From assembly GCA_010093995.1 (NCBI GenBank), contig ML992501.1, positions 392,227 through 456,226 of the forward strand: DNA of 64,000 bases, read 5' to 3'. Under the pieces are notes generated by a model. The model saw only the letters and a list, made by a program, of their open reading frames with translations, searched no databases and was not told the DNA's origin. Each line of letters begins with the position of its first letter. Positions within the stretch are counted from its first letter, which is position 1. Source of the DNA: Elsinoe ampelina. Lineage: Eukaryota. Below are positions 36,864-60,900 of this stretch, piece after piece. A program made the position numbers and the translations under genes.

Positions 36864-37103
36864 AGGATGGGACGGAAAGAAGGAGCATGTAGATAGGGAG
36901 TTTCTTGATACCAGACAGATGGCTTGAAGATGTACATAGCTGTTCTTGCGCCCCCTATGCATATATACTCTGCCACAGCGTCCCCGATCAAGTCGGCTAA
37001 AGAGGAGAGACGAGAGGCGTCACGTGGCCCTATTTGCTTGTTGACTTGTGTGTGGGGAGGAAAAAGGATTAATTACTGCCTGAACCACCAAAATAAGGTA
37101 GAT

Positions 37104-37537
37104 TGTAACTACATAAATACTTAACCTAGTATACTAAAAGATAGCTAAATCAAAAGAACTTCTTAATAGTAGCAGATTAAGACAATAATTATCTAATTTG
37201 ATTATAGATTAGTAAAATAGTAAGATAGTGTTTAGTTTAACCTTAGGATAAACTAAATTAAAGTCTTCTTAGCGCTCTAGCTTATACCTCGGTTAATATA
37301 TCCCTTTACTAAGTAGCTATAACTCTATAATAGCTAGTTAGTAGACTACTAACTTAAGGAATAGCTATTATAAGAAGGCCTTATACCTTCTAGGTAGTAA
37401 TAATTTAGTAAATCTATTAGCTAGTGTATCTACTAATAGTGTCTATATAACTAAGATAGGACTAGATAGATCTCTAGCTTAATTAATCTCTTGTTTTAGC
37501 TAATAATAATAAATATTAATATAGTAAAGATATATAT
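37104..37537 (-). mobile_element. 3' end of a RIPed Ty1/copia element (end of RNase H, purine tract, probable 3' LTR at ~37104-37298; LTR limits uncertain)
   Basis: The minus strand reads YINIYYY*LKQEI (=HIDIHHHWLKQE) and LANRFTKLL (=ADGFTK). The first motif is in frame with 50831+ across the gypsy insertion site. Confidence 0.7.
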
Positions 37538-37542
37538 TTAGC

Positions 37543-38005
37543 TGTTATAAACCGTCTAAACACAGCCTACGCTAGTAGTCTAAGCTAAGCTAAGAACGAG
37601 GTAGTTCTGCTTCTATAGTAGTATAGTACTAAGGTAAGAGTCGGAGAAGGTATATCTTATAGATAATAAAGTACAATTAGATAGTATTATAAAGGCTAGC
37701 CTTAGTAATACTAGTGTTCGCTATCTAGACGAGGTTAACTATAGTACTTATATAAGGTAAGGACTACTTCTATATACATGTGTTCTTTACTACGTACTCT
37801 ATGTGCTCTATATACTCTATAGCGAGAGTTAGAGGCAATATAGAGTACACGTCCGCTAGTAACCTATGTACTCTATAGTCCCTAGGGTAGAGCCGCTAGA
37901 GAAGATAGAGAACTAGGTAAATGTCGGGCTAGGTTATATAATAACCTTAGTAGTTTAATTAGTCCTAACATCTCTACGCTTTAGCTATCCTACTAGTTTA
38001 TAACA
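37543..38005 (-). repeat. 3' LTR of the outer gypsy element
   Basis: TGTTATAAACC...TATAACA; direct repeat of 50363..50825. Confidence 0.95.
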
Positions 38006-38079
38006 TTACTCTCCTCCCTTAATTAAGTTGTCCTAATAAGTAAGTATCCTTTCTTGTCCTTACGCGCTATATACTAAAC

Positions 38080-38630
38080 ATGCCTCCTAGTCGTTAAAGA
38101 CATAGTAAATCTAGCACATCTATACGAAAGAACCTTTCGAAGTTTATTAAATTGTTTAGAACTAACATGCTATAAGCTTACTCTCGTTATAAGTTAAAAG
38201 AGCTAGACTACAAAGTCTATATTCGGTTAGGTATTTATAGCTAGTGTGTTACGAGTAACTACTCGAGTTATAATATTTAGATAACAAAATCGGAATAGTA
38301 GCGTCTCTAGTCTAAGTATATTCGTTTATAAAAGGAATTAGTTACGGCTAAGGCTACTAGAAAGGAAGCTAAAGAAGCTTATAAAAAGGCAAAAGAGGCT
38401 TATTAAAGAGCTATAGGTAATAAGCTTTACCTACGTAAAGAGATATAAAAGTTAAAAGACAAGGTAGAGGAAGTAATCTCTCTAGAAGAGACCTATATTT
38501 AAGTCTTAGAGTAGAAGGAAATACTATTGTTAGTAGATCCTATTCTACTATAGAACTAGTAATTATTTATGCCTAACTCCGATTAGAGTTCCTTACTTAG
38601 TAACGATTAAGGTACTTCTATTAGTTAAGT
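38080..38630 (+). pseudogene. RIP-inactivated antisense ORF inside the outer gypsy element: Zn2Cys6-like cluster plus coiled coil (3' limit approximate)
   Basis: One frame from ATG 38080 has only TAA/TAG stops. Tyr/Cys codons at 38179-38271 are spaced x2-x6-x8-x2-x7 and are followed by a Lys/Glu/Ala-rich heptad helix. Confidence 0.7.
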
Positions 38631-39856
38631 AATCTTCCTTAGGCATTCTTGTTTTTATTTAGTGTTTAGAGTGCTAGGTCTATCTAGTTAGTTTACTTAG
38701 GATAGGTTCTTAATCTAGTAATCTAGAATTACTTACGAGGTAAGGTACTTCTCTAGTTTCTATATTACTTTACTATACTAATGTCCCTTCTAGTAAATAA
38801 GATAGTAGCATTTTTCTTTTATAAGTTTATAACGTAAAACCCTTTCGATCTTATACTATAGCTCCTATATTTCTTTATCTAGTTCGATAGGTCCGGGTAT
38901 AGTATTCTATAGTGCTTTCTCTAGTAGTAATATATAAAAGACTAGATAGATCCTTATATGTCTTAGTAGTTCTAGTTTGTATATATTCTTATTTTTCTTT
39001 TCTAGGATCTTAAAGGGTCCTAGTTTAGTATAGTTAAGTTTCTTACTTAGTTGTTTCGTTTTAATGTTTTTACTAAGGAGATAAACTTTCTCTCTCTCCT
39101 ATAGAATTAGTCCTACAATTCTCTTCTAGTTAGTAAACTCTACTATTCTTTATAATATAAATGCTATATTATAGTATAGCTAGTCGTGTAGTTTCTTAAT
39201 ATTAGCTACTAGTATATTAGTATCCTTAGATATTAGCTTAATTCCGAGTGTATTATAGTATAGATCTAGGTATATTTTAAAGTTTATATAGAATAGTGAA
39301 ATTCTATTCGCTAACTTTCTATTATTAATAGTAAGCTCTATAAGTAGTAATAGTGTTACCTATAAGTCTTACTTATAGTTTAGGTAGCATCGTAGGTACT
39401 ACTCTAGTACTTAATTTGCCTATTTAGTTTATCTATCCGTTTATAGATAAAAGGAAGTTAATAGCTTATGTTTAACTCCTAGTAGGTCTATAAATAATTA
39501 CTAGAATTGTAACGTAAATAGCTTATCCCTATTAGTTATTAGGTCTCGTAGTACTCTATGTTATAAAATAATTATTTAGAGAAAGACAAAGGCTATATCC
39601 TCGGTAGTTACTATTGTCTTATATAGTACAAAGTAGTAATACTTCGTAAATCTATCTACTAGAACTAGAATACTATTATACTTTACACCTGTAAGAGGTT
39701 CTTCTAATAGCGGTAAAGGTCCTATAAAGTCTATCGTAACTAATTACTATAGTTTATCTAATAGTGTTAAGAGTTATAATAGGCTATATAGCTTATGTCG
39801 TAAGTGCTTAGACTTATAGCATGTATCGCATATAGTAATATACGTCTTAATATTGT

Positions 39857-42800
39857 TAATTACGACTAGTAAGACAAGAGGTTAATTACGTCTATTCGTT
39901 AAGATATCGAGACTTAGAAGAAGAAGAAGAAAAGCTAGTATATAAAGCACACGTAATATCGAGGGCGGAGCGGCCGGAAGCCTAGGCCGCGATGCTAAGA
40001 TCACGTAACTAATCTAAACTAGATCCTAACTAAATCTAGTTCGTATCTATCTCGTATTACTACTCTCTCTCTTAAGCGCGTTTACCCTTAAACGCTATTA
40101 TATATTATTTATTAATCTATTTCGGCCTTAGCTTATCCGTGTAAGAGTCTAGATAGTTATATAGTATGTCGGCTACTCCTTTAAGGTTGTTAATTAGCTA
40201 CTAGGTAAGATTCTCTAGATAGCTCTTCTAGCTTATATAAGTAACTAGCTTCTCTCGTAGTATACGTATGTTAATTACGTTATCTACCTTATACTCTTCC
40301 TTACTGTCGATCTCTACCGGAGGCGGTTCCTTAAAGACTTAGCCTAGTAGAGGGTTATTCGGGTGCTTAGTAAGGAGGTCGGCGTAAAACACAGAGTAAA
40401 TCCTTTATAGAGTAGCTAGTAGATCGAGCTTATATACTAATAGCGACTGTTTTTCGAGGATCTTATAAGGACTAACATACTTCAGTAGTAGCTTCAGATT
40501 ACCCTATAGCCAAAGGTTTTTCATCGATAACTACACTAAATCGCTAGCTTTAAACTCTATTAGCTAGCGGTGTTTATTAGCTTACTTTACTATTCGTAAC
40601 TAAGCGACAGCAAGGTTAGCTTTAGTAATAGTAAGGGCTTCTTCTAGTTGTTTAGTAAGCGCGCGAATTTCGGCCTTATTAAGCTTAGCTCTTGTTAATA
40701 GTAAGTCGGTAGGGGGCTAGAAGCTTATTCTTAGCTTATATCCTCTAGTCACCTCGAATAGCAATAGCTTAGTACTTTCCGAGGGGTTAGCATTTATAGA
40801 GAACTCTATAACCGGTAGAACAAGGGTCTAATTACTAAACTGTGTTATATAGAATTAAATAACTCGTTTAAACTCTTAGTTTATAACTTCTAATTAGCTG
40901 TCTATTTAAGGGTAGCCGGCAGTAAATAGCTTAGCTATAATCTTTAGGATCTAGTAGAGCCTCTTCTATACGTCGCTAACGAACTAAGGGCTATAGTTAG
41001 AGGTAATACTATCTAGTAGGCTATATAGTTTCTATACGTAGAAGAATAATAGCTTAGCCGTCTCGAACGTAGAGGTTCCTCCTTCTCCCTAGAGGTAAGG
41101 GATTAAGTATTGCTCCTTAGATAAGCAATCGACAATATATAGTACTACGTTGTAGCTATCTACTAGAGGTAGGCTAGTAACGAAGTCTATAGTGATATAT
41201 TGCTAAGGTCTTACTAGAATAGGCAATAGCGATAGGAGGCTAGCTAGTAAGCTATAGCGAGCCTTTAAGCGCTTATAGTTGTAATAGTTAGCTACGAACC
41301 TCTTAATAAAGTTATTATAGCTTAGGATATAAAAGGTAGTCTTAATTATAGCGGCCGTTTTAGTAGCTCCTCTATATATATAGTTCTTCGATATATAGAC
41401 TTCTTAGATAACCTTTACGGCTATTAACTATAGTACGAATAGTTAGCCGGCGACCTATAATACCTCTTTATTAATAGTAATATTGCTCGACGGTAGCTAT
41501 TTCCTCTTTAGGAAGGCCCCTATTATATAGTAGATGCCTCTAACTGTTTTGCACTTAGCGTCTTATAAGTTAGCTTTAGCTACTTCTTCGAAAACGGGTA
41601 AAGGTTCTTCCGCGGCTAAGATAGGTACTACGTAGATGCCTAGTTCGGCAGCCGAAATAGGCGCCGATACAGGTAGCGAAATAGAAGGCAAAATCGGTAG
41701 CGAACTAGACAGCGAACTAGTCTGCGAACTAGATGCTAAACTAGATCTTAGTTCGGCTTAGATTAGTAATCTAGTTCGGATGCGACCTAGATTTAGTTCG
41801 TCGATAATGCGCTAATCTAGCACCTTATATAGTAGTAGCGTCTAGCGTAGATTAGAGTCTTCTCTCGAACGTAGTACATCTCTATTCTTCCTTATAAGCG
41901 CGTTAGCCTTGCCGTTAGCGGCGCTAGGCCTATATATAATCTTAAAGTTAAACTACGTAAGGTAGAGAGCCTAGCGTACTTAGCGGCGTAATAGCTTCTA
42001 AGTCTTTATAAAGTGTATTAAGGATTAGTAGTTAGTAAGGATATAGATAGCCTTATTAGATTAAGTGCTTATAAGCTTAGGGGCCTATTCCTCGAAGGCT
42101 TAGACGATTACTAGTAGTTCCTTATCGTAGATAGCGTAGTTATATTCGGCTTCATTTATAGATTTACTAAAAAAGGTAATAGGCTAGAGAATGTTAGACT
42201 TATTATATTACGATAGGATTCTAGTAGTAGTAGTGTTAGAGGCGTTAGTCTTAAGAACTATCTACTTCGAGCAATCGAAATACGTAAGGATAGGCGCACT
42301 TATAATAGTGTACTTTATGTAGTTAAATACAGTAGTATACTTATCGTTCTATAGTGTAGTGTTCTTCTTAAGGAGATCGTTTAGTAGCTTAGCAATAGTG
42401 CTAAATCCCTTAATAAAGTAGCGATAGTAGCTATAGAAACTAATAAAGCTTCTTACCTAAGTAGTGTTACTAGGAGCTAGCTATTTCTAGGCTCGTATAG
42501 CTTTTATCTTCTTTAGATCTATTTTAACTCTATCTTAGCTAATAATAATACTAAGATACTTTACCTCTATTAGGTAGAACTTACTCTTCTTAATGTTAGT
42601 GTTTAGGCCTAACTCGCGGAGCTTCTAGAGCACTAGCTTAATATGCTTAGCGTGCTCTTAGCAGGAGCTATTTATATAGATAAGGATATTGTCTAGGTAG
42701 ATCGACACGAAGCGCTCTAGTATATCGACGAAGTTATAATTTATAAACCTCTACTAGACTATAGAGGCATTAGTAAGGCTAAACGGTATTACTAGCTACT

Positions 42801-45800
42801 TAAAGTTACTTATATATATAGAGAACGTAGTAAGATCTTTACTATCGACGGAGTTATAGAGGTAGTAGAAGGCTTAACGAATGTTAATCTTGCTAAACTA
42901 TTTAGCCTTACTTACGTATATAAGCGTTTCTTTAATAAGGGGTAGAGGATAGATATCTCACTTAGTTACCTTATTAAGGCTATAGTAGTTAACGTAGAGA
43001 TAGAGTTCTCTACCTAGCTTATAAACAAAGAGAATAGGTAAGGAATAGCTAGTAGAACTTAGTGTAATAAAGCCTTTATTAAGATGTTCTTAGATAAATT
43101 ATTCTACTATATCGAGTTCTTCTAGCGATAGGCAGCATAAAGGCTCTATATATAGTAGCTTAGCGCTATCTTTAAGTATAATACGGTTATTAAAATCTAG
43201 CCGATGCTAAGGGAGCATATTAGATTATTCTTTAGAGAAGACGTTAGTAAACTCCTATAACTCCTCTAGGAGAACTACTATAGAATCTAGTTCTAGCTCG
43301 AAGGCTATCTAGTAGTAGTCTTTAATATTCTTTACCGAGATTATAAACACCTTATTCTCTTAGTATTTAGCTACTAATACAAAGGTAGTAGCGCTAATAA
43401 AAGCGATAGTTAGCTTTTCTTACTTAGTGTTACTTACGTAGGCAAGTACGTAGGAGAACTTATACATTAACTAAGTACTATAGAAGATTAGCTTAAACTC
43501 TCCCTAATTTAGCTTAAAGTTCGACCTAAGAGCTAGTAGTCGATATAGTCTAGTTCGCTCTATCTTAGTAGCCGAGCTAGAACCTAGTTTACGTGTTAAA
43601 CTAGGACCGAACTAATTCTAAACTAAAACGGTAGCTTTGCCGAGCTAGGTTCCTAGATCTAAGCCGGGCTTAGATCTAGATTCTAGCCTTTTAATTAGCT
43701 ACGGCGGCTTCTACTTAACAACTGTCGGCGAAAACTCTTCTTTGTATATAACTTAGCTGTGCTTATAGTCGATAGTAGCCCTATTAGCCTTAAGCTAGCT
43801 AAGGCCGAGGATAATGTCGAATTAGCCGATATCTATAATACAAAAGGTAGTAAGGTTATTTAGCTTACTAGAAACAGTAGTAGTAAGGGGAACGCTATAT
43901 ATAACTTGCTCTATTAAAACACCGTTATAGGCTTAAAGCTAAATAGGACTAGCTAGTGCTATAGGGTAGCCGAAGCTCTTTAGCTTGTCGAGAATGTTAT
44001 AATTAACTATAGCGCTAATAAGCGCGCTAGTGTCGATAAAGGCTTAAAGTATAATAGTACGTAAGCGGTTATAGGGGTCGTAAATAGTAATAGGAGTTAT
44101 AATAGCGGGGATGTAGTAGCTAATAACACTATTTAGTAACTATATACCTCTAGATCTATCTCGAATTACTCTTGTTCCGCTAGAGGATAGAACTCGTCCT
44201 CTAGCTACTTATTTCTCTAGCTAGAGAAACTAGTAGGCTCGTAGTCTATTTTAGAGTCGAACTAAGACTTAACTAGATCTAGTTCGTAAGTCGAACTAGT
44301 ATCGACCTAGTTACTTAACTCGGCTAAGCGATTCTAGAGCTGCTATATCTCCTCTATAGCGCTAATACGTGCGGAGCATATAGTAGCGTAAGTAGCCTTC
44401 TCTAAGGCGCTAGCTATATACTTAGTAGAGATATGTCTAGGCTTACTACATGTGTAATAGGTAAGTACTAGAGCCGGACGGAAAGGCTACGGAGTACCTC
44501 TAGTAATAGGGCGGAAGGTAGGTAGAGCTATAGGCGTAGAGGTAGAATAAGGTACGTAAGTAGGTACGGTAGTAGCGCGGCTTATAGCTAGCATAGAACG
44601 TAAAGCCTAAGTGCGCTTAGTGATAAGGTTATTCTATTAAATGTTATAGTTAGTAGCGTAGGCCTTAGTAATAAAGGCGGTAAGGTTATTAGTGTTATAG
44701 TTAACTAGAGCATCGCGTAGCTCGTTAGATATCTTCTAATAGATCTAGTATAGCTACTTCTCTTTAGCGATCTTAGCGCGAAGAGTGTACTTATTAAACT
44801 CGCTAATAAAGGAGTTAAACGTACTATTACACTAGAAGAGGTTAGCAAACTAAGTGCGTGTAGTAGCCCTATAGTTAGGATCCTCGAAGTACTAGGCTAG
44901 GAGGATAAGGACCTCTTCGACGCTAATAACGTTATTACCGGCTAAGTCTATAATAAGAGTATAGACTTCTCTAGAGAGGCGTAAGTATAGATAGGCAAAC
45001 TAAGTGTCTCTTATAGAGAAACAATCTATGTTAGTGCGTATCTTATTCCTTATCTAGTGCTTAAAGACCTCGAACTGCTCTAGTGTACCTATGCTAAAGA
45101 CGGTAGGGTCTAGTATCTTTTCTAACAAGGTAGAGCTACGTATAGAAAGGGCTAGTATACTACGCTCTATCTCGTTTCTTAGTCGGTCTACCTTAGCCTT
45201 AAGCTCTTAGATTTTGTCTAGGTAGCGAGTAGCTTAGGCAGTAACGCCGTCGGTATAGGACTAAGATACGTCTAGTTCGGATTAGAGGTTACCGAGCTAG
45301 GCCTAAGTAGTATCTAACTTATAGTAATAGTAGAGAGCGTCGGTATAAGCGCCTTTTACCTATGTAGTTTACTTATCGTAGAAGGACTCGATATAGTTAA
45401 ATACGTCTCTTAGTACCTATATACTATGCTCTTTCTATAGCTTCTTAAGGAGTATAGCGTTAGAGAGGGCAAAAAGATTATAGTAGGGAGAGTAGATAGA
45501 GGCGTTATTATTGTCAAGGATAGGTTAAGGTAGCTTACTTTAGTAGCGCTCTTTGTCGCTATAGTTAGATCGAGCTATACTCGGCGTAGTTAGTTATAAA
45601 TAGAATAGTATAAAAAGTTAACGCGTAACAAAGGGAATATTAAAATTTTTAGCTAGTAGCCTACTTCCTTTAAGAGTCGTCTATAACTCGACTTATTATC
45701 TTCTTCTTATATCTTCGGAGTTTATAGTATTAACCTATATAGCGGCAGTAAGGATCTATTATAGTGTACGCGGGAACTGTAGTTGTAATAGCTTCTTCTT

Positions 45801-46110
45801 CGATTCTTCGTAAGTGGTAGTTATTAGTAGTTACGTAAGTAGTAGAATAACTAGATAGTTTAATAGCTCTATTGCTTAGTCGCGGCTTCTTCGAAGTCTC
45901 GATATAGTAATTACAACTAGTAAGACAAGAGGTTAATTACGTCTATTTATTAAGATATTAAGACTTAGAAGAAGAAGAAGAAAAGCTAGTATATAAAGCA
46001 TATATAATATCGAGAGCGAAGCGGCCGGAAGCCCGGGCTGCAATGCCGAGATTACATAACTAATCTAAACTAGATCCTAACTGAATCTAGTTCGTATCTA
46101 TCTTATATTA
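39857..46110 (-). mobile_element. Inner full-length Ty3/gypsy chromovirus of a different family, RIPed; 203-bp LTRs at 39857..40059 and 45908..46110; TSD ATTGT; inserted in the outer element's integrase region
   Basis: ATTGT occurs at 39852-56 and 46111-15, and a PPT lies next to 40060. Motifs: Gag knuckle YYTCSKPRHISTKY (~44445), protease AFIDTSA (~44035), RT IYLDNIL (~42695), RNase H KTNASN (~42245), chromodomain EPPPVEIDSKEEYKVD (~40300). Confidence 0.95.
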
Positions 46111-49100
46111 ATTGTTTTAGAGTTCTTTCTATAGGTAGTTTTATATAATAAGTTTAATAGTCTTATTAATCCTACTATGCCTCGCTATTAGGTTATTATA
46201 GTATATTTAAATAACTTCTTTCTTCTATTCTTATATAAGCTCCTAGGTAAGGCTATATAACTACTTTACCTTTAGGTGCTTATAGACTAGAGCGTTGTCT
46301 TACTACTTTAGTATAGAGGCCTCTATTATTATTATATTCTTTAAGTAATCTAGTTGTTAGCTAAGAGTATCTACTCTACTATTCTCTAATTCCTTAATAT
46401 AGTAGATCTAAAAGTTGTAGCTTATAAGTGTTTCTAACTATTAAACCTATTATCTATTAAGAACCTTAGTTATTGTCTAATATAATAGGTTCTTATAGTT
46501 AGTGTAGACTTATATAGGTAAGGTTGTTTCTTCTAGATATACTCTCTATTCGCGGAATACCTCTATAATTGCAAGTAACTCCTTATTATATATATCGTAG
46601 TTAAGTTTAGGTCTAGTTATTTTTCGTAAGTAGTATATAATTAAGTAGCGTTATTCTTTCGCGTTCTTCTACGCTAGATATACTTCTATTATAAAGTCTA
46701 AGGCATCCGTTTCTAGTAGTGCTTATTAGTCTAGGTTAAAGAGTACTAGAATAGGTACTATTATAAGTCTAAGCTTTAGCTCCTTAAAGGCCTACTTATA
46801 TTTCTTATTAAAGACAAATCTAGTTTCTTTCTTTATAAGGTTAAATATTAGCGTAGCTACCTTAGAGAATCCTTTAATAAACTTATAGTAGTAGTTAAAG
46901 AACTCTAGTAGCGCTTAAACCTCCTTAACTATAGTAGGTTCTAGCTAGTTATTTACTAACTTAATCTTTTTCAAGTCGGGTCCGATGCTATTAGTAGATA
47001 TAACATAGCCTAGAAATTATATCTTGTGTTTATAAAACTTACACTTAGAGAGCTTTACTAGTAGGTCTTTTTCTTTTAGTTTCTATAGCACTTTATAAAT
47101 ATATTCTACATGTTTATTGTACATCTTTAAGAAGATAATAATATTATCTAAATATACTAAGATAAAGTTATTAAGGTATTCTTATAGAGTGTTATTAATT
47201 AACTCTTAGAAGGTTATAGGAGCGTTAGTTAACCTAAAGGGCATAACGAGGTACTTATATAGACCCTATTACGTCCTAAAAGCTGTCTTTTACTCCTCGC
47301 CCTCCTTTATTTATACTTAATAATAAACATCCTTAATGTTAATTACGGTAAACTATTTAGCTCTAAGTAGTCGGTCTTAAAGTTTATTAATCCTTAGTAG
47401 AGAATAGCGATTCTTCCTAGTAAGTGTATTAAGTTTCTAGTAATTAATATATATTTATAATATTCTATCCTTTTTAGGTATAAAAAGCACTCCGTACGTA
47501 ATAGGTAATTTTAATAGTTATATAAATCCTTTAAGTAAGTGCTTGTTAATATAGTTCTTAAGGACGTTCTTCTCTTGTTTCGATAGTAGTATAAGACCTT
47601 AATAATATATTAGGGATTTACTCTCTTTAAAGAGTATTTTGTAATTCTATAGTTTATATTAGAGTAAGGCTATAATACCTTCTCTTTCTTTAAACAAGTT
47701 CTTAAAGTCTTTATATTCTAGTAGAAGTACTTAATCGCTTACGCTAGCGATAGCCCTAACTATTAGTCGTACCTATACTATCCTTATAGTTAGTATCTAT
47801 AGAGCTAATTATACTCCCTACGTCCTATAATTGTACTTAGGGAATTTAAGTGTTTCTTTAATCTAGTCTACGTCTAGATTATGTTATTAAAGCTAGTCTA
47901 TGCTAAGTACTATATTATACTATATGTCTACTATATCGATTAATCGTTTTTCTATATGTGTTTCGATTTTAATTATAACGTTTTATAGTTCCTAAGTAAC
48001 TTTCCTATTCTTCCCTATAGAGGTTCTATTCGCTATAGTAAGTAGGTAAGGTAACTCCTTCTAGTGTTAATAAGGTTTAAGCTAATTAGCAACTATTATA
48101 GAGACGTAGCTATAGTTAGCTCCTAAATCTATTATTGCTCTTACTTTACTCTCTTATATTTTAACTTCTAGTATAAAGTAGTTTAACATGTAGATCTTTA
48201 TTATATTAAGGCTTTAGCTAGTGTTATTGTCTTGCCCTATTAGGTAATAACTAGCTAGTTTTTTGTCATTGTAGCTCCTTAGATAAGTAGCTAATCCCTT
48301 CCTATACGTATCTACTATTAGTACTATATCTATTAAGTAAGTTATATTTTGTCGCTATTTAACATAGTAAGGTAAACTTCTAGCGCCTAAGTCCCTTAGT
48401 AACTATAAAGTCTAATAATTCTCTACTAGTTACACTAAGTAGTGTTACACACCTATATTAGTATAACTATTCCTTCTAGGTATAGCTAGGCGTTAGTATT
48501 AAAGACAAAAACAGGTTATGTAGATTTGTCTTATTATATCCTATTCTAGTAGTAGGTATATATTATTATATAATTCCTTTATATCTCTATAAGATATGCT
48601 TTAAGTCGTCTACCTAGTAGTAGTACGTCGTTGTCGTTGTTGTTATTATTAGATAAGTCCTTATTTATGTTATTATATTATAGTTATTCGGTGTATTCTT
48701 CGTTATATTCCTCTTCGTTACTACTGCCCCTAGCATAGTTATAGTTAGTAAGGCTATACTAAGTATATTCTCTTACTTAGCTATAGGGGATAGTACTATC
48801 TATTTTAATTACTAAGAAGTCTATAGTGTATTTAAGACTAATAGCGTCTTCTCTAAGTACATTATATAAGTAGATAGTATAGTACTATTCGCAATCTAGA
48901 TTTGTACATTTCTAGAGTAATATATAATATACCTTTCCTTATAGTACGCTATAAGGGCTAAAGGTAAGGCTACTATATTGTTATATAGCACTTACGTCCT
49001 AATACTTTGTCTCGATAATTGTATATTAGTAATTGTTACTAACTACCTTCTAAGGTTAGTTACTATTACTACTAATTATAGAAAGCTCTTCTAGGTTAGG

Positions 49101-50362
49101 TTCCTAGTCTAGCTATTTTGTTAGTTACCTACGCTTAGATAGCTTATATAGGAACTAACTAGATCTCTACTTGTCTAATAAGTAAATATAACAAGAGTTA
49201 TTATAATATACTATCTATAATAGCGTTACGTGTTAGCTTTATTATTTACTATCGGTTATAGAGATATTAAGCGTAATATCTAGAGAGAATTCTACTACCT
49301 CTCGAGTTATTATAGACTTCTTCTATGTTTCTTTACCTATGCTAAAGGTCGTTAGGTCTTCTATAGTAGTATTAGCCTTTTTCTCTACTAGCCTAGCAAC
49401 TATTATATATAATCTATTAGCTAGCGCCCCTTATTAGTAGTCCCTAGCCCGATGCCTAGGTCTTTTACACTTAAAATATAGATTGTCTCGTCTATACTTC
49501 TCTCTCTCTTTTTTACTAAGGAACTTTCCTCTATAGCTATAGCCTTGTGTCTATAAGGGGCAGCCTTCGTATATAGTATTAAGTTCTATAGGGTCTCTAT
49601 AGTTTCGGGAGGAACACGTATATCTAGTATTTACCTTATATCCTCTATAACGTTCTATATGTTATTTATAAAGTCTGTTATCGATAGTAATTGTAGTGTC
49701 TACTAGTTCCTAAAGACTATCGAGCAGCTTAAGTATTATTTAGTCTTTAACTAAGTCGCTTAGTCCTTAATAGAATACTAAGTGTTTAGTACTATTGTCC
49801 TAGTCTAGATACATTACGAGTTGTTAGAACTAGAAATAGTACTAGGCTATAGACCTATATTATTATAGTTATTAGATCTTCGTTATAGCGACGCGTTCCT
49901 TATTAGATATATTAAAGACTTACTTAATCTTTGCCTAGAAGATGCTAAAGCTCTTAAAGATAGCCTTTGTATCTAGGCCTAGTTATCTATCTAGGTAGCT
50001 ACTTATATAAGGCTCGAACTACTCGAAGGTAGCGCCTTTAAGGTGTATCCCGGCATAGAGGACCTTTACTATATCGTTAGCGTACTTATCTCTCTCTAGA
50101 GCAAAGAAGGCTTTAAGTTAAATAAGGAAGCGCCTTAAGTAGGTATAGTCTCTATAGAAGAGTTCTACTTCTAACTTAGGCTTACTCTATCCTTCTATAC
50201 TAAAAGACCTTCTATGTTTACTCAAGGTTAAACTAGTAGTAGACATGTTGTTAATAGTAAGCTTTCCTAGCTTACTAGCGATTAAAGATGCTAATAGTAA
50301 CTTAGAGCGAGAGTTACTTATTAACCTCGTAGCGTGCTATACTATAGTAAGGGTAGTTAAAA

Positions 50363-50825
50363 TATTATAAACCGTCTAAATATAGCCTATACTAGTAGTC
50401 TAAGCTAAGCTAAGAACGAGGTAGTTCTACTTCTATAGTAGTATAGTACTAAGGTAAGAGTTGGAGAAGGTATATCTTATAGATAATAAAGTATAATTAG
50501 ATAGTATTACAAAGGCTAGCCTTAGTAATACTAGTGTTTACTATCTAGACAAGGTTAACTATAGTACTTATATAAGGTAAGGACTACTCTTATATATATA
50601 TGTTCTTTACTGTGTACTCTATATACTTTATGTACTTCGTAGCGAGAGTCGGGAGCAATATAGAGTATATATCTACTAGTAACCTACGTGCTCTATAGTC
50701 CCCGGGGCAGAGCTACTAGAGAAGATAGAGAACTAGGTAAACGTTAGGCCAAGTCACGTAATAACCTTAGCAGTTTAATTAGTCCTAACGTCTCTACGCT
50801 TTAGCTATCCTACTAGTTCGTAACA
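50363..50825 (-). repeat. 5' LTR of the outer gypsy element
   Basis: TATTATAAACC (RIPed TG start)...CGTAACA; same length as the left LTR. Confidence 0.95.
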
Positions 50826-50830
50826 TTAGC

Positions 50831-53800
50831 TTCTTAATTAGAGTAGTAATAAGACTAATAGTTTACTAATTGTTATACTAAATACTAACATATTTAAGGG
50901 GATAGATAGAGGCTATTAGCCTCCTCTACTATATAGCTTACTTAGTAGTCTCTATAAGAGTAAGTAGCTTAGCCTCTATAATTAATATTATAACTATTAG
51001 TTACTTTATAGCCTTCTAGTTAATTAATCCTTAAAATATCTTAAAGAGATAGCCTTAAAGGCTCTTCCTTATTAAGTAGCTACTAAAGCTAGCATCTAAT
51101 AAAGCTTAAAAGATTAGTAGTAGTATTAAGCTATTAAAGGTAAGAGCTAAATTCTTAGTTTTATAGAGATATTAGATTACTCTATTTACTATTCTCTAGT
51201 AAGTTAGTAATAAATTTATTAGATACTTTAACAATCTAAAAGTAGTAAAGGCTATATTAGGCCTTATAATAACTACTATAAAGTTAATAGATCCAACCTT
51301 TTACTAATATAGATAGATCTCTTATAGTAATACTTAGCCTTTATAAAGTTAAAGTATCTTAATTAGTAGTAGTATTAATACTAGCCTTGTTAGTTCTATA
51401 ATAAACTTACTATATATCTATTATATATACTAGGCTTAGCTAAGCTAGAGTCTCTTTATTAGTCTATCCCTTATAACTTAGATAGCTAGAAACTAGCTTA
51501 GATCTCTAAGTACCTTTATCTTAGATTTAGTATAGAGAGCTATAATAATAGTATTAGCTTTCTCTTTATGCTTCTTAAGGTATATAATAGTAATATTATC
51601 TACAAAGAAGAAGATTATTACATTAAGAATTAGCTAGAGGTAAGAAGCCTTAGAGGCCTAAGTAAAACTAATACTCTTTAGAGTAGTAGTAAATTTAGTA
51701 TACTAGAGAGCTAGAGCTTATTTAAGACTATATAAGGCCTTATTAAGCAAGAGAGGTATATAAAGTAGAGAGAACAACTAAACTAAATCTAGTTTAGAAT
51801 CTAGTTTAGTATCTAGTTTAGAATCTAGTTTAGAATCTAGTTTAGAATCTAGTTTAGAATCTAGTTTAGAATCTAGTTTAGAATCTAGTTTAGTAGCTAA
51901 ACTAGATACTATCTTAGACTCTAAGTTAAAGCAATCTAGATTAAGGGCTAAGCCTATCTTAGTAGCTAGATAAGAGTTACCCTATCACACTAGATTAGTT
52001 ACTACCTCTATTAGACTAATTAGAAAAGGCTATTCTAGATCTAAACCTAGCTTAGATCTAGGAATCTTTACTAAATAAATAGTTCTTTAATGCTCTAGCC
52101 TTACTACTATCTATAGTAGTATAGCTATCTCCTCTACTACTAGGAGGAGATAAAGCTAAAGGAGATAAGATAGAAGTTTAGACTAAAGAGGTAGTTAAAG
52201 CTTAGCCTAAGTAACTCCCTTAAAGAATTGCTATAAGGTTAGCTAACCTTCTTCCTAAATATATCCTTATAATAAGAAGAATAAGAAAACTAAGAAGGTA
52301 AATATATATTACTACTCTTATATAAACTAATAAGGCTTCTAGATATTACTAAGCCTTTAATACTTATCTATTAATAACACTAACTTAGCCTAAGCTAGAA
52401 TTAAGAGATAATCTTCTACTACTACTAGCTAATATTAAAGAACTTAAGGCTTATTCTTATAAGAAGCAATTTTAAGAGGCTATAAAGGTTAAATTACTTA
52501 CTTTACACTTAAAATATATATAGACTATTATACTAGTAGATACTTATAGCATTACTTACTTATAAAGATATAGAGGCTATCTAGATAGATGTTATTAATA
52601 CCTATATTAATAGTCCTATTAATAAGACTACCTACTATACTATCTCTACTAGATTTAAGCTAGTAGTAGAGGATCTTATAAAGGACTATCCTAGTATTAC
52701 TCTATTAGATATAATCCTTTAGATTTATTAACCTCCTATAGGAGCCTTAGTAGATTAAGTAATCTAATTAGTTTTAGCTAAGGTTATTCCTCTAGCTTAT
52801 AGAACTAAGTGTTTATTAAATCTAATATCTCTTATTCTAATAACCTTCTTAAAGGCTAGTATAAAGATCCTAAAGATATTAGTTAAGTTATAGCTAACTA
52901 GATAGCTAATATAAGTCCTTAGTATAAGCTTATTACTACTTATAATAAGCTTATCTAAAGTATAAGCTTTATATCTAAGTAGCCTAAGATAAGCAACTAA
53001 TAGAGAACATCTATAAACTAGCTTAAAAGAAGTCTTCTAGTCTAGCTTCTTAAGAGGTATTCTATTAATTAGATAGGCTACTAATCTATATAGTTTAGAG
53101 TATAATTCCCTTAGTAGATTAGTAAAGATAGTAATTACTCTTACTCTCCTTAATAGTATAGCTCCTATCCTTTTATTATAACTATTCTAAGCTTAAGTAT
53201 AGGGAGTAGATAGCTTATAATAGATTCCTTTACTATCTAGAAAGATAGTAAATTTAAGGCTAAAGGCCTTCTTATTATTACTCCTAAGAAATCTAATTTT
53301 AAAGCTAAAATTACTTTTAATATAAGTAATTATCTTAATATAGATTTTATTAATCTTATATCTATAAGTATAAGTAGTAACTAGTTAATAGTTAGTAGTC
53401 CTATAAGTAAAGTAGCTTATATATCTTGCCTTATTATAGCTAGTAAATCTGTTAATAATAATATTAAAAGTAGTTCTCTTAAATAGCTTAAATATAGCAA
53501 GTTTAGTGTTAGAGCTCCTTAATATAATCTACTAAGTATTTAATAGCTTACAAGTCTAATATAGAGACCTAAGATAAATTAGTTAAGCTAAACTAGGCTT
53601 AGTTAGAGTTAGTTTACTACTAACTATAGTAGTTAGAAGGTAATTAATAGACTCTAAGCTTAGATAGCCTATAACTTTATACTAAGATTAATTAGTCCTT
53701 ATAGTAACTATAGTAAATACTAATAGTAGATAATTATTATTATTCCTTAATACTATAGTAGTAATATTAGGAACTTTAGAGTTATTCTTAAGAATACATT

Positions 53801-54926
53801 AGTTATACTTTAGTATAACTAAGAAGAGTACTTTTCCTTTATAGCTAATCTCTATAGTTTAAGTATTCTAGTAGACTTTACTATTAATAAACCTCCTAAG
53901 GCTAACTAGATTAGTTATAATTAATAGTATATAGGCTACCTTTATAAGATAGATAGTTATAGACTTTCCTTTATAAAGAGCTATAATATTAATAGTTCTC
54001 TAACTCTTAATACTAAGTAAGGTATTACTATAGAATAGCTTCTTATAAGGTTCTATAATTCTAGTAACCTTATATCTATCCTTTATAGTATAATTATAGA
54101 TATAATTAGTTACTCTAGAATCTAGTATCTATAAGTTAGAGATATTACTAGTAGCTAAAATAAATACTAAGTATAATCTAATAGTAATAGCTATATTAAT
54201 TAACACTAGTAGGGTTAACCCTTTCTAATATTATACTTTCTTAGTAATAGAAGCCTTAATTCTCTCTTTAAGAGTCTTATTATTTAGCCTTTGTTTAACC
54301 TTCTTTATAGTCTACTAGTTTAGTATCTATCCTTCTAGCCTTAGATACTTATTTAAGTAATAGTACTTAATCTACTTATACCAGCCTTAGTATATATATT
54401 TAGGCTCCCTAGAGGAACTAGATTTCTTATAAAGAATATTCTTAGTAGCTATAGAGAAGGCTATAGCCCCCTTACTAGCCTTTATAGTACTATATAGCTT
54501 ATAGAGTTTATAAAACTATCTAAACTTAGTAATTAGTTTAAGTATAGTTAGCAGAGTTAGTAAATCTAGATTAATAAGGTATTTATTAGCAAATACTAGT
54601 TTAGTTTTTAAGATAGAGAGTAAGAAGTCTCTTTATAGCCTTAAGCCTTAAGCTTCTAGTAGATTATAGTTCCTAGCCTTGTCTATAACCTCTTTCTATT
54701 ACTAAAGCTAATAATCTATATTCTATAAGAAAGAGCTAGATAGCTACTTCCTCTAGAGTACTTTAACCTCGAGCTAAATAGCTATATTAGATAGAGCAAA
54801 TCTGTTCTTTAATGCCCTAAGAATAGCCTATAGATAAGAATCCTCTTCTAGTTAGATAATAGTAAGAACTTATAGTACAATTAATAACTAAATAAGGCTA
54901 GCTAAATTAGCTAAGGCCTTATACTA
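50831..54926 (-). mobile_element. Body of the RIPed Ty1/copia element (gag-PR-IN-RT-RNase H), with an internal inversion and a truncated or interrupted gag
   Basis: Minus-strand remnants in copia order: gag ILRALKNRFAL (~54810), knuckle YIY*GWYK*IKYYYL (~54380), protease *ILDSR (~54125), *YKVIGYL (~53675), SH3 ISYLVSYNLTNIFRIF...RIRDIRFN (~52870), RT VLRDLS*FLAI (~51500), RNase H YNN**TI (~50865). Confidence 0.85.
51787..51894 (+). repeat. 12-bp minisatellite (ATCTAGTTTAG[A/T])x9 in the copia IN-RT linker
   Basis: Directly visible head-to-tail copies with no spacers. The unit length is a multiple of 3, consistent with a former peptide repeat. Confidence 0.9.
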
Positions 54927-57900
54927 CGTTACGAAATCTCTAACGCTAGGGAGCTACGTTAGACTACTTCTAAGTAACTAACTTAGTTTAACTTAGTTTA
55001 ATATAATTCTCTAGTTACCTCTAGGTCCTACTTAGAAGTAATATAGTTTTTCCCTATAGAAATCTAAAAACCTCTAATACGTAGTAAACAGAGACGGCCT
55101 AATAGTAGATAGTGCACTACGTGCATTTCTTATCTTAGTTTAAGCGTTTCTTAGTTCGCGAAGTAATTAGTTTATGTCTACTCTATAAGCTTAATAATAT
55201 TAATTATAGAAATATTCTATTACGTAGCTTACCTTATAGTATATATTATATATGTCTATATATTATATAGACCTTGTAATTCGTCTACTACGTCTAGAAA
55301 ATTATACAAGGTTACTAGAATATATATATTGCTTTACATTCTACCTAATGCTACTCTTAATAATAATATATATACTATCTTCTTATAATTCTATATCCTT
55401 ATCCCTTAGTTCTATAAAAGTATCTCTATTTAGTAGATGTCTATTCTCCTTAATGTCTAAGATACTACTACTATACTTTAGACCGATTTAGTACTATAAG
55501 ACTAGTTTACGTAGTAGGCCTCTAAACTTCTTATATACGAAGGACAAAAAGTTTATCTACATTTATATACCTAAGAAATCCTTCTACTACGCCTCGACTA
55601 CTAGTAAATTGCTATTAAGTTGTCCGTCTTAGAATAGTATAGCATGTGTATAATTAAGTAGCCTAGGTAAATGTCGCTATTAAGTCTATTAATTCTCGTA
55701 TATACTAACTATAACCTAACTTAGTTTAGTAGTAGTTAAAGTCATAACAAGGTTGCTATTTATATTAGGTATCTACGCTAGCTATACTTCTATTATAGGA
55801 GTTACTATAGGACAATTTAGTACTTTACTCCTGTATATAAACTAAGTAGTACCTTAATACGCTATAATAGAGCGTTTAGCCTTAATTAGACACTCTTCTC
55901 GATCTATTAGTATTAAACTTAAGAAGCTAATAGGAAAATTAAGCTTACCTCTTAAAAGGTGCTTAGTAGGAGTATTTCGTACCGGTGCTATATAATAGCT
56001 ATTACTCCCGCTATTAGGCCTATTATTATATACCTAACTTCTCTATAAGTTAGTTTAAAGTTAGGTAGGCCGAACTAAAATAAGAAGGTATATATATACC
56101 TTTCCCTTGTATCTTCTCTATTTAATAGTCCCTTTATAGTATTAGTGTAAAGAGATATATTTAACACTACTACTATAATAGTAAGTCTATTTCTCTCGAC
56201 GTACTTAGCAAAGCTAAGTTTTAGCTAACGAAGGATAAGAACCTATCTCGGGCTAATCTACGCTAAGAAGTTATTCTAAATGCTTAGTTAAATATTATTA
56301 AGCTCTAAAGGTTCTATATATTTAAATACTAGTATTCCCTTAGGTAAGTAGGACTTAACTTTATCTACTTACTTAACTAAGAGTATATAAATTGTCGCTA
56401 GAAGAGAGAAAATAAGAAAGAGTATTAGTTTATTAAAGTAATAGCAAGTGCTAGCTATTATAGCTAAGCCTATATGTCTAATAAAAGCTACTTAGAAGGC
56501 TTTATATATTAAAGGACTCCTAAAGCGTTTACGCTACTATATATAAGTAATTAATTAATAAGTATATCTAGCACGTACTAAATTGCTATCCTTGTATTAG
56601 TACTTTCTTTTCTCTAGTAGCCTACGTGCTTAATTCGGTAGCTTACTATCCTCTAGCCCCTTAGCTAGCTATTCGTAGTAGAGTATCTCGCTTACTATTT
56701 ATATAATGTTATTATAACTATAGTAGAGCGCCTCTCGGAGCTATATATATATTAATAAGTAATTAGCTTTAGCTACGTAACTTACCTTACTAGCTATAAC
56801 TATAGAAGAGTATTTGCCTATAGTCCTCTATAGATAAAGTACTAGTAGCTAGTTATAGACTAAGCGCTAGTACTATATAATTCGTAGGAGTAGCTATTAA
56901 TTGTCTAATGTTAGTAATATTATATTATAATCTACTCTAATAGCTATACTTATATATAGATTATTATATACTGCCTCGAAAATGTCGAGATACTAGTTTA
57001 GTACGTTCTATTGCCTCTGCTTTACTATCTTAACTAGCGTAGAGACTAATGTTAGACTATTCTTATCGAGTTATAGCTCCCTTAAACTCGGATCGAGAGT
57101 AGTAATGTCTAATTTATACCTTCTCCTTTGTCTTTAATATTATATTTATAGCCTATATAGTTAGCTTAGTCTCCCTTAATACTAAAGCCTTACTCTACTT
57201 TATTCTAGTTAAAATAACCTAAATTGTTATCTTTAGAATACTTATTAGTCTTATAGTCTAAGCTATATAGGCGCTAACGTACCTAAGATATCTTAGTTTA
57301 TAATAGTTCTAATAAAGAGATATATAGGTATAAGAGAGTTAGTAAGGCAGGCTAGAATAATATATGCTATAAGGGGGATAGATAGTTATCTTATATACGT
57401 TATAGTAACTTAGCGTTAGTTTAAGTTAGATAATAGCTTAGTTAGGTGTTTAAAGTATATAACTTTCTTCTAATTAGAATTAGTTATATCCGCCTATACC
57501 CTAAAGTAATCTTAACTAGCAAGGATATTAAATTAGACTTATAGCTAGGTCTAACTTGCGGAGTGCTAATTACTAGAAGCTAAACTAAAAAAGAAAGCTA
57601 CTTAAACTTACTTAGACTAAATACTTAAACTAAATATAGCATTTGTTATTAGGTTAAGTAATAATTAAAGTAGAAATACATCGAGAGAAATTATAGATTA
57701 AACTTAGACTAAGTAATTATATACTAATTCGAAAGACTATAGGAACTAGCTATTATATATATAGACAAGTAGTATAATTTATATAGTAGCTCCCTTATTA
57801 ATTACGTTAGTAGTCCCTCCTTTACTAAGTAGTATATCTTTTAAGTGCTAAAAGCATTAATTGCTTACTATCTTACTATCTAGAGTGTCTAAATAAGATA

Positions 57901-60900
57901 CGCTAGATAGAGTAGCTTATCTTCTACTAATTATGTTACAATAGAGAGTAGATGTTAATTAGCTATTAGTAACTATATATAGTAATAGTAGAGTAGCACT
58001 ATTAGTATAGCGTTATATACCCTTATTTAATCCGAATAAGCCCCTTAACACTCTACTAGTAAGGTCTATAGAGGCGACGCTAAACGCATAAAAAGCTTTA
58101 CTAATATGCTTCCTAAGTATATTATTCTCTCGCTAGAGTTATCTAATTAAGCTTATATTCTCCTCTACTATTAATTGTAATTAGCTTACTTCCTACTAAA
58201 CAAGTGTAATGTCTTCCTCTAGGAGTTACTATCTATTAAGCTATTTAGGCTACTAGGTCCTATATTGCTTTTACTAGCTACTAACGTAATTATACTCTTC
58301 TCTATATATATATAGTAGAGAGCTTCTAATTTAAGCCTCTAGCTAGTTAGGGAGACTATTAGAAGACTATACTTTAATACCTAAATAGATAAGAGAAGCC
58401 TATATACTTAATTCTATAGTCTAGATATTAGCTACTAGAGAAACAAGGTTAGTATAATTAACATCTATACTTAGGAGCCTAGTCAAAAGATACTAATAGA
58501 CCCGATAGATTAATAGTAGAAGGATAGATAAGTAATTCTAAAGAGCAATTTAGTTAAAAGGTAAGGAAGGATAAAGCGTAGTAAACGAACTAAAACTCTA
58601 GGGTTTAGTAGTAAGTATAGCTTAGCGTAGATTACCCTATTACTTTTTAGTTCGACTTAGTCTACTACTAGACTATTCTCCTTTATACTTGCTTCGGCTA
58701 GATGCTTTCCTTAATCTCGTTACCTTATTAGAATATAAAGAGGTAAACTATGTAATATCTTAGACAAGATAATAGCCTTAAACTAGATAATATTCTCTAT
58801 TATAGCGAAATATAGTGTTCTATTGTCCTTCTAACCTATAACATTGCTTTACTTATTATATATATAGTAGTCCGTTATAATCGATATTACCCTTAGCTAA
58901 TTAAACTTAATATCTATATCCTCCTTAGATATAGTAGTTATAGCTTTATAACATATAAGTAGAAGATCTCTAATCGAGTAGATAGGATATATCTCTCTAT
59001 CCTTATAAACTACTAATAGTATATTATCTAGTCGATTAGAGAGTAAAGGCGCTTATAATTACAATTAGCAATCCGAGGATTTATTTAAGGTAAGTATATT
59101 AGTACTATTCTATACTCCTCTAGGCTTATATAATCTTAAGTGTAACTATACCTACTAATGTCTAAAATTAGTACTTATCTTATAGATAAGAGCACGGAAG
59201 GTAGCTTAACTATTACTACTCTCTAAGAGCTCTATCGTATACTAAAATATATACCGAATGTTATTACTATCTAGTACTACTAGAAGTACTTTCTTCTCTA
59301 ACTTTCTCCTGTTAGAAATTGACCTAAATATTCTTCTAACTATGTCTTTACCTATTATAATATTCTCTAAGAGACTATATAAGTCTCTATAGCCTTTATT
59401 GTTAAGGGCGAGGGCTTACTTAATAGCTTTAATTAAGTATATCGCTAGTTAATAAGAAGCAGATATAGGTATAGCTATAGAGAGGAGAAGGAAAGAAAGA
59501 GAGAGTAGAGATAGAAGAGTAGCAGTATAGGTAGCAATTTAGTGCAAGTGTTACTTATAATAGATAAGCCTTAGATCTTAGTTTACTTACGAGAGAGGCA
59601 TACTAGAATTGTGCTTAGTTATAATTAGTTAGCCTAAACTAACACTTATAGAACTATAAAGTTTAACGCGCTAAACTTTATCTCCTCTTAGTTTTATTAT
59701 ATACTTATTATATAGCAATATAACTATATTATAAATACGATTTATAATAACGCCTTAGTTTATGCCCTCTACTTATACTAACCTAAACGTAGGCGTTAGT
59801 GTCCCTAGTATAACCTTTTCTCTCCTCTCTATCTAACCTTAATAATAGCTAGCTATCTATTATAGTAGATTCCCGCGCCTAGTACACTATAATTATTCAT
59901 TATTATATATACTATAGCAACTCTAACATTTACTCCTGCCTTGCTATTGCTACTACTTCTAATAGTATCCTCTACACCGGCTGTATTATGTTTATAGGAT
60001 TAACTACTACTAGTACCTAGTAGTTACGCCGGAGTAAATCTATTATAGTATACCTCTCTATCTTGCCTACTACGCCGCTATAGGCTTAAGGGTGCATAAG
60101 GAGACTCCGATACCTCTTTCTCTCTCCCCGCTACTACTGCCCTCTATAGCTTTCTTTATACTAGCTATATATTATTAGTAGAATTAGCTACTATCTCTAC
60201 CTAGTAGCTATAACTAAGCGAATCTATCGCAGAGCATCTCCTAATCTTACGGACAGCGCTACTAGGGGTTCTAGCGTATATAAAGAGAGTAAAGAAGCTA
60301 GTATCTACTAGGAATTACCTACCTTATAGTATAAGAATATTAAGGGGAGAATTATAGAGGAATAACTAGTATAATAAAGGGGAAGAGATAGAGGCATATC
60401 GTAGGCAAAGATATATCTACTACCTCCTACTAGATAGTAGCTTACTATAGAGAGTATCGTAGGCGAAGCTATACTAGTAGTATTCTCTTTTATAATTGCT
60501 TTTATAGCGGGGTTTTATTATTAGTAGCGCTTTATTATAACTTTCTTACGTTAGCGATATACTTCTTTCTATGTAGATTATATACCTATTACTTTAATCT
60601 CCCTCCTTTAACTAGTAAATAAAATCTCCTTGTCTAATACGTATAAGTATACTATATATCTTTCTTTATTTCTTATTATTTGTCTTATCTCCTGTCTACT
60701 ATAAAGACATTAAGGTTATTACTTTACACGATAATACTCTTTGTTAAATAGTCTACTAGCTATTTAGAGCATATATAACTTTATATATAGTACTAATATA
60801 TAAGTGTTTAGTATAGTTAATTACTTTAATACTAATTTTCTATAATAATTAGCACTTATAATATTCTCTAATAGCTATGTTTTATTTGCTTACCTAATTT

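Follow-up and report, generated by a model that had tools for sequence, protein, structure and literature searches.

Extra ORFs lying antisense between pol and the 3′ LTR have been reported for several LTR retrotransposons, including Boty of Botrytis and Sclerotinia; their function is given as unknown and their role is acknowledged as an open question in the accessible part of PMC7264820. The closest known gene is brtn of the Botrytis Boty element; this fungal Gypsy element, too, has a chromodomain, and its additional gene lies behind pol and ahead of the 3′ LTR, in antisense orientation to gag-pol. A Boty-like element that has both a chromodomain and brtn is described in the available sections of PMC4227169, and the gene is also mentioned in those of PMC5987419 and bioRxiv 10.1101/2021.04.13.439636. 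Figure S1 of PMC8365987, a source accessible in part, draws these antisense ORFs and may bear on the family analyzed here. Plant Gypsy elements carry antisense ORFs as well (Grande gene23, RIRE2, and the Retand TRP28 ORFs), which are alike in position, orientation, conservation in most copies and their proposal as regulators, but differ in belonging to a non-chromovirus lineage with 3′ regions of 3–6 kb and in coding for TRP28/SMC domains (accessible parts of PMC7264820 and PMC11963269); among the family proteins analyzed here, no TRP28/SMC-type Pfam match was found.

Apart from the brtn citations, a literature search whose coverage left out most subscription papers listed no description of an antisense gene family of this Cys6 kind in Gypsy elements of fungi. 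The name 'GORF' of Blastomyces had 0 occurrences in the accessible part of PMC4595289, and the accessible parts of PMC2774666, PMC3248453 and bioRxiv 10.1101/2022.03.07.483234 contained nothing on an antisense Cys6 gene. A preliminary description of the locus, made from the sequence alone, had called extra antisense ORFs poorly characterised, which is fair, though the arrangement had already been published for Botrytis Boty brtn according to the available sections of PMC7264820 and PMC4227169.

The window, i.e. the whole analyzed stretch of 64,000 nt of Elsinoe ampelina DNA, shows a RIP signature from 37001 onward, with a GC content of 0.25–0.40 and a TpA/ApT ratio of 1.7–2.5. It contains a complete outer Gypsy element, here named element A, at 37543–50825 on the minus strand, flanked at both ends by a TTAGC target-site duplication (37538–37542 and 50826–50830). 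Its 3′ LTR (37543–38005) has TG...CA ends, its 5′ LTR lies at 50363–50825, and a polypurine tract, recognized in the sequence and by a motif also present in intact relatives, adjoins the 3′ LTR at 38006–38022. Matches to relatives located gag at 49254–50336, the 5′ part of pol with protease, RT and RNase H at 46120–48270, and the RIP-inactivated 3′ part of pol from integrase to chromodomain at 38769–39854, all on the minus strand as well. The domains of the latter part were read, and the chromovirus domain order was taken, from the intact relative L071, which is 49% identical to element A in pol. The chromodomain match in the window itself is weak (E 1e-4), and a chromodomain stands at the end of six of six full-length pol frames of relatives that were scanned. 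By its LTRs with target-site duplication, gag, a PR-RT-RH-IN pol and a chromodomain, element A is a Ty3/Gypsy chromovirus.

Other repeats surround or interrupt this element. Element B, nested on the minus strand within the integrase region of element A pol (approximate limits 39854–46110; LTRs of about 210 bp), belongs to a second, RIP-mutated Gypsy family with many genomic copies, and a profile search of the window found no trace of the antisense gene in it. About 500 bp of another repeat, the apparent insertion target of element A, lie at 37037–37543, where the GC content drops abruptly from 52% to 32%; this repeat has matches at several genomic places. At 51750–51940 a 12-bp unit is repeated in tandem in about 11 copies, within a stretch rarely matched elsewhere. 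A separate repeat of at least 9 kb occupies 54920–64000, with near full-length genomic copies at 91–92% identity; none of the Gypsy gag/pol sequences employed as queries matched it.

The preliminary description had placed an antisense gene at 38080–38630, between pol and the 3′ LTR of a Gypsy element. This placement holds, as the minus-strand end of pol lies at 38769 and the 3′ LTR at 37543–38005, and on retranslation the quoted peptide proved to be exactly the plus-strand frame from ATG 38080, a start codon 74 nt from the LTR edge. The end calls for correction: codon 183 reads as sense in one of 40 copies and relatives are 152–207 aa long, so that the gene probably continues past 38630 to about 38700–38721. 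Based on the frame, its copies and the profile of the relatives, we annotate a RIP-inactivated antisense accessory gene at 38080–38700 on the plus strand, with the uncertainty of its 3′ end covering about 38700–38721. The frame contains 20 stops in 207 codons, every one TAA or TAG. Its six-cysteine cluster region (38179–38271, plus strand) comprises codons 34, 37, 44, 53, 56 and 64, of which codon 56 alone still specifies Cys, as had been noticed before; the other five are Tyr where intact relatives have Cys. The stretch 38287–38541 on the same strand corresponds to a long heptad helix or coiled coil and matches helix 75–159 in the model of the relative P0002, in agreement with the helix that had been proposed to follow the cluster. 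Pfam matched 0 families on the window relic.

Within the E. ampelina genome at least 105 matches to an intact relative were found, all containing stops; 89 loci were read, and 52 of these are distinct. A comparison of 40 copies gave 3691 transitions versus 57 transversions. At 30 loci checked for their surroundings, an integrase lies beside the gene in 30/30 cases and an LTR in 29/30. Cys codons survive among the 52 distinct copies at C1 in 6, C2 in 14, C5 in 9 and C6 in 2. C3 and C4 are TAY (Tyr codons) in all 52, so that the copies of this genome alone leave these two positions unsettled; they are settled by the relatives, which have six Cys in 16/16 cases. Every copy examined is broken by RIP, and the gene is non-functional in this genome. 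One copy of the same family (L095; G000:C86), from a contig with a high number, is far less mutated, with 47% GC and 6 stops before codon 207, so the RIP load is strongly uneven between copies.

A word-based homologue search with the broken copies yielded 0 relatives from 1552 candidates. A profile of 18 broken copies was then used as query, and a full HMMER scan with it retrieved 25 proteins with a best E of 2.1e-21. The six Cys are invariant in the 16 intact relatives, align with the six window codons named above, and bear out the spacing C-x2-C-x6-C-x8-C-x2-C-x7-C that had been reconstructed by reverting RIP. Among 65 sequences, 43 distinct Cys motifs were counted, all spaced 2-6-8-2-6/7/8. 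When all protein searches were pooled, the full Cys6 motif was present in 51 of 72 proteins, a mix of Cys and Tyr in 10, and neither in 11. The ten mixed database proteins (P0009, P0010, P0017, P0018, P0024, P0026, P0039, P0041, P0066 and P0067) show the same Cys-to-Tyr pattern and are RIP-hit copies from other sources that have been annotated as proteins. Named relatives come from Aulographum, Aureobasidium, Elasticomyces and Friedmanniomyces. One relative bears the UniRef label 'Zn(2)-C6 fungal-type', and the ESM Atlas neighbours were only unnamed ascomycete clusters.

Searched back against the window, the intact relative P0002/L070 matches 38110–38508 with E 7.9e-17 and 70 bits, compared with at most 18.5 bits in 300 shuffles, while the relatives L071 and L087 gave no tblastn match on the window at E<1e-3. 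A profile of 26 intact relatives matches a single place in the window with E 6.9e-23, the next match having E 0.045. These matches bear directly on the suspicion that a Tyr-rich RIP frame had merely been over-read as Cys. Such an artefact would agree with the one Cys codon in the window, the invariable Tyr at C3 and C4, the lack of a Pfam match and the empty word search. It is refuted by natural intact relatives with all six Cys and by the significant matches of these relatives back to the window, besides the Cys codons surviving at four positions among the copies, and we give it practically no weight. A consensus keeping Tyr or His at the cluster positions, which would have spoken against a cysteine cluster, is thus not what the relatives show. 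The frame at 38080 is confirmed as a RIP-killed copy of a genuine accessory gene of fungal chromovirus-type Gypsy elements.

For the genomic context of intact genes, a metagenome scan provided 25 loci representing 19 distinct elements (L070–L094); the search pattern had matched 132 times, and for 107 of these matches a relationship to the family was not confirmed. The scan required C-x-x-x-x-x-S-G-x-C, so that conservation of this loop in the 25 loci is partly given by construction; independent of the scan pattern, the same loop is present in 20 of 25 full-motif proteins from the protein searches. The gene lies inside an LTR element, on the strand opposite to gag/pol, at 24 of the 25 loci; the remaining locus has only 47 nt downstream, too short to tell. 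At 20/25 loci pol is on the opposite strand with the two genes facing 3′ end to 3′ end, and at two further loci a pol chromodomain was found on the opposite strand. At 17 loci the ATG was found 44–113 nt inward from the edge of the 3′ LTR, and the open frames of the gene and pol overlap in 10 of 17 loci. One element (L073:4673-7086, the same in L074) is non-autonomous and 2.4 kb long; it combines LTRs of 330 bp with a gag fragment and a form of the gene whose tail is shortened, and it has no pol. An env-like third ORF was considered as well and rejected, the gene being antisense to gag-pol in the window and at 24/24 informative loci. The proposed link to Gypsy elements is thereby upheld, and for the intact relatives the gene is shown to be a third gene of an ascomycete chromovirus lineage, arranged tail-to-tail with gag-pol.

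Four of nine relative pairs had a usable dS over the first 140 codons and gave dN/dS values of 0.06–0.10, the other five being saturated; judged from these codon comparisons, the gene of the intact relatives is under purifying selection. Both linkage and selection weigh against the idea of a captured host gene fragment that travels as a passenger without a role in the element cycle, or serves the host. Its likeness to host Zn2Cys6 factors would fit such an origin, as might two annotated Aulographum hederae proteins located on long contigs. Against it stand the one fixed position within LTR elements at all 24 informative loci, dN/dS of at most 0.10, and the lack of an intact host copy among the 105 own-genome matches. 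We regard this explanation as very improbable and, by linkage and selection, largely refuted.

The history of the gene seems to differ from that of the integrase. For 13 elements, gene tree and integrase tree reject each other with AU p of about 4–5e-5 both ways, based on few taxa and unrooted trees, and identities of gene and integrase correlate weakly in a Mantel test (rho 0.28; 379 of 5000 permutations as high). The own-genome integrase is nearest to that of L071 (62%), and the own-genome gene is 46% identical to L070 and 44% to L071. We infer that this conflict may reflect the exchange of a 3′ module between chromovirus lineages.

With regard to transcription, the relative L090 is present in 22 leaf-litter RNA runs, and in four of four runs examined its contigs are missing 62 nt that have GT..AG ends on the gene strand and lie 19 nt past the stop codon. 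This RNA evidence stems from a single element and from assembled contigs, and the leaf-litter runs behind them possibly belong to one campaign. Because the splice polarity of these contigs gives the strand, an antisense RNA exists, and the antisense expression supposed in the preliminary description is supported for this intact relative. The sister assemblies L087 and L089 are without the 62 nt spliced from L090 RNA, and L085 is without a GT..AG stretch present in L083, the L083 donor being 5 nt from the predicted one; the splice itself was seen for these two elements only, i.e. L090 (with L087/L089) and L085 versus L083. Intron-like signals starting −10 to +45 nt of the stop were detected at 10 of 17 loci versus 7 of 449 background windows elsewhere in pol, a count that may partly be a by-product, since conserved codons of the chromodomain, read on the opposite strand, overlap some of the splice signals. 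Nine copies of element B were without a chromodomain match, so that element B provided no control for the intron signal. Guided by the relatives, we assign a candidate 3′-UTR intron of 54 nt to 38740–38793 on the plus strand of the window, opposite the pol chromodomain; its donor GT, branch-like site and AG are kept in 52/52 own-genome copies.

An antisense RNA in this position could also restrain the element that produces it. The RNA, the protein or both would dampen the element, either through pairing with pol at its 3′ end or through occupancy of the LTR, which would amount to a copy-number control comparable to the antisense genes of HTLV. The L090 RNA contig, which spans 732–1513 across the splice and covers the overlap with the pol 3′ end, is consistent with this, as are the overlapping frames at 10/17 loci, the retention of the gene with shortened tail in the pol-less element L073/L074, and the regulation by dsRNA discussed in the accessible part of PMC7264820. 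However, selection acts on the protein, so the RNA alone offers no explanation; at least 105 copies have accumulated in this genome, and L090 is covered nearly end to end in the RNA runs alongside the spliced form. In our judgement self-restraint is an improbable function of the gene.

Beside the polypurine tract, 23–27 nt inside the 3′ LTR edge, a hairpin is present in 17/17 intact loci (L070–L094). Its stem comprises 4–8 bp, a G-C closing pair with a pyrimidine loop of 3–4 nt occurs in 16/17 loci, and base pairs are exchanged at several stem positions across the intact loci. In 14 of 17 loci the hairpin was equalled by at most 10 of 200 shuffles. RNAalifold returned no consensus structure for it, since loops of 3 and 4 nt were misaligned, and the anchored count was used instead. 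A putative RIP-decayed remnant with a stem of only 3 bp can be assigned to 38024–38040 of the window (no strand assigned), where the core motif is kept, at unchanged offset, both by the window and by its copies. The hairpin may act in cis, in plus-strand priming, in packaging or as part of the antisense 5′ UTR.

The protein of the intact relatives combines a basic head, which holds the six Cys, with a coiled coil of heptads and a tail that is both acidic and aromatic. Two structure models (pLDDT 81 and 86) predict a helix, a compact Cys6 head, a single helix with a length of about 85 residues, and disorder in the tail, and in 14/14 proteins the head carries a charge of +7 to +11 and the last 50 aa one of −4 to −10. 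Acidic-aromatic tails are typical of fungal activation domains. Of 61 proteins, 6 lacked an anchor; in 50 of the other 55, the length of the long helix differs by multiples of 7.

The preliminary description had assigned the cluster to the Gal4 type, and this assignment stands in part. Zn(II)2Cys6 motifs follow C-x2-C-x6-C-x5..12-C-x2-C-x6..8-C, and the family motifs satisfy this spacing. Compared with the Gal4-type factors of PF00172 (Gal4, Hap1, Lac9, Pho7, Leu3, Ppr1, Put3), the family is alike in the pattern C-x2-C-x6-C-xn-C-x2-C-x6/8-C, in a cluster followed by a coiled coil, in the basic head and in the top-ranked folds. In Foldseek searches with two models, the first 18 and 19 rows were all Zn2Cys6 domains, none of them significant (best E 0.19), and the Lac9 cluster superposes at 1.8–2.1 Å over 32–33 residues with Z 2.2. 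The VIA structural match to Zn2Cys6 reached Z 2.7, short of significance, and a wide VIA search, which excludes nothing, gave a best Z of 3.3 without clear fold. A PDB sequence search with the family profile returned only coiled-coil look-alikes and Lac9 at E 3.4. The suggested check with the Zn_clus HMM (PF00172) was run on the relatives and did produce matches, all under the Pfam cut-off of 21 bits: 6 of 25 proteins at E 0.076–0.67 with 10.5–13.6 bits and, for head domains, 9 of 18 at E<=1 with a best of 0.0011. Alignment to own-genome Zn2Cys6 domains by hhalign gave a probability of 20–24% over 13 columns.

The differences concern the residues by which Gal4 proteins read DNA. Gal4 structures have a basic residue at C2+4, which reads CGG, and a Pro preceding C4. 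Lys or Arg at C2+4 is found in 8 of 43 family motifs versus 26 of 27 host Zn2Cys6 domains, and the loop Pro before C4 in 0/43 versus 27/27. Loop 3-4 of the family has 8 residues, is KVHVRSG-like and is without Pro, and Lys at C2+4 is rare. The family further differs from Gal4-type factors by an extra helix before the cluster, a coiled coil of about 85 residues modelled as antiparallel, a whole protein of about 190 aa, and scores below the cut-off. No CGG-pair motif common to five inspected LTR stretches was found. The Gal4-type assignment fits the Cys spacing and the top-ranked folds, none of which is significant; the Pfam score, the CGG-reading Lys and the loop Pro speak against it, as would the antiparallel model. 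Based on the models, the protein would work like a zinc-cluster and coiled-coil regulator, not as a standard PF00172 member. The name BRTN was on none of the 20 and 34 relative proteins examined, and the likeness to brtn is one of position and orientation. The original brtn study of 2011 (Virology 417:248) is reported to have found brtn weakly similar to GAL4 and, by RT-PCR, expressed.

Self-pairing through the coiled coil is supported by modelling. For residues 12–160 of P0002, the self-pair model scored 0.48 against 0.01 for the best control, with runs agreeing in at least 86% of contacts and pLDDT 81; the self-pair mark is reached by 21/30 solved pairs and 0/23 single chains of microbes and by 17/29 and 0/30 of eukaryotes, respectively. 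The predicted dimer is antiparallel; in it, L88, which is invariant, packs against L123 of the partner chain, a residue that is nearly so. Gal4-type coiled-coil dimers are parallel, with two clusters side by side; an antiparallel dimer, as modelled for this one relative, would separate its heads, with one at either end. Models of this kind are known to be weak on the orientation of coiled coils.

This geometry would allow a two-headed tether, in which an antiparallel coiled coil with a zinc head at each end would connect two partners or two sites on nucleic acid: one LTR with the other, element RNA with the machinery for its export or packaging, or chromatin with the integration complex. Such a protein would act after transcription like a retroviral accessory factor, possibly on the hairpin beside the polypurine tract. 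The L88–L123 packing, the helix length of about 85 residues, the loss of the Gal4 DNA-reading residues and the hairpin, which keeps its offset in 17/17 loci while its base pairs are exchanged, argue for it, and Rev/Tat-like roles have been suggested for antisense ORFs in the accessible part of PMC7264820. The antiparallel arrangement comes from a single model of one relative, in which orientation is the weak point; moreover, length steps of 7 are compatible with either orientation and the acidic tail is left unaccounted for. We consider a tether rather unlikely.

The reading that we prefer is an element-encoded nucleic-acid-binding factor, made from a spliced antisense mRNA, which would bind its own LTR or chromatin and promote transcription or resist silencing. 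A promoter in or beside the 3′ LTR would give rise to the antisense mRNA. The head would bind two zinc ions in a Gal4-like cluster and the coiled coil would pair two chains. The dimer may then bind LTR DNA or chromatin of its own element at a site different from the classic pair of CGG triplets, and the acidic tail might raise transcription of the element or hold off its silencing. In favour of this reading are the intact relatives with their Cys positions, the linkage to LTR elements, selection, splicing, the ranking of folds, the charges of head and tail, the self-pairing model and the helix-length steps of 7; it is weakened by the lack of any significant match to Zn2Cys6, by a CGG-reading Lys and loop Pro that are mostly absent, by the antiparallel model, by the lack of a common CGG pair in the LTR stretches inspected and by the disagreement with the integrase tree. 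We hold this reading tentatively and put its chances a little short of even. A broader proposal, that of a widespread and so far unnamed ascomycete retrotransposon accessory family which places a Gal4-like cluster in a novel arrangement with an antiparallel and length-variable coiled coil, serves for tethering at both ends or against silencing, is translated from an antisense mRNA that is spliced, and passes between chromovirus lineages as a 3′ module independently of the integrase, appears unlikely to hold as a whole.

The general kind of gene, antisense and located behind pol, has already been published, and the Cys6 gene of the window is dead and adds little by itself. New here are the splicing of the antisense-strand RNA, the loss of the Gal4 DNA-reading residues, the antiparallel dimer model, the conflict with the integrase tree and the conserved hairpin; a 3′-UTR intron, a dimer form and module exchange, which we observe or propose for the relatives analyzed here, are not mentioned in the accessible parts of the brtn literature. 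For annotation, it is relevant that such ORFs carry labels of host 'Zn2-C6' factors or hypothetical proteins. As a small conserved family with natural, intact and transcribed members and a predicted fold, these genes make the question of antisense ORFs testable in fungi. If the protein is a trans-activator or an anti-silencing factor, fungal chromoviruses would have a self-regulation in the style of retroviruses.
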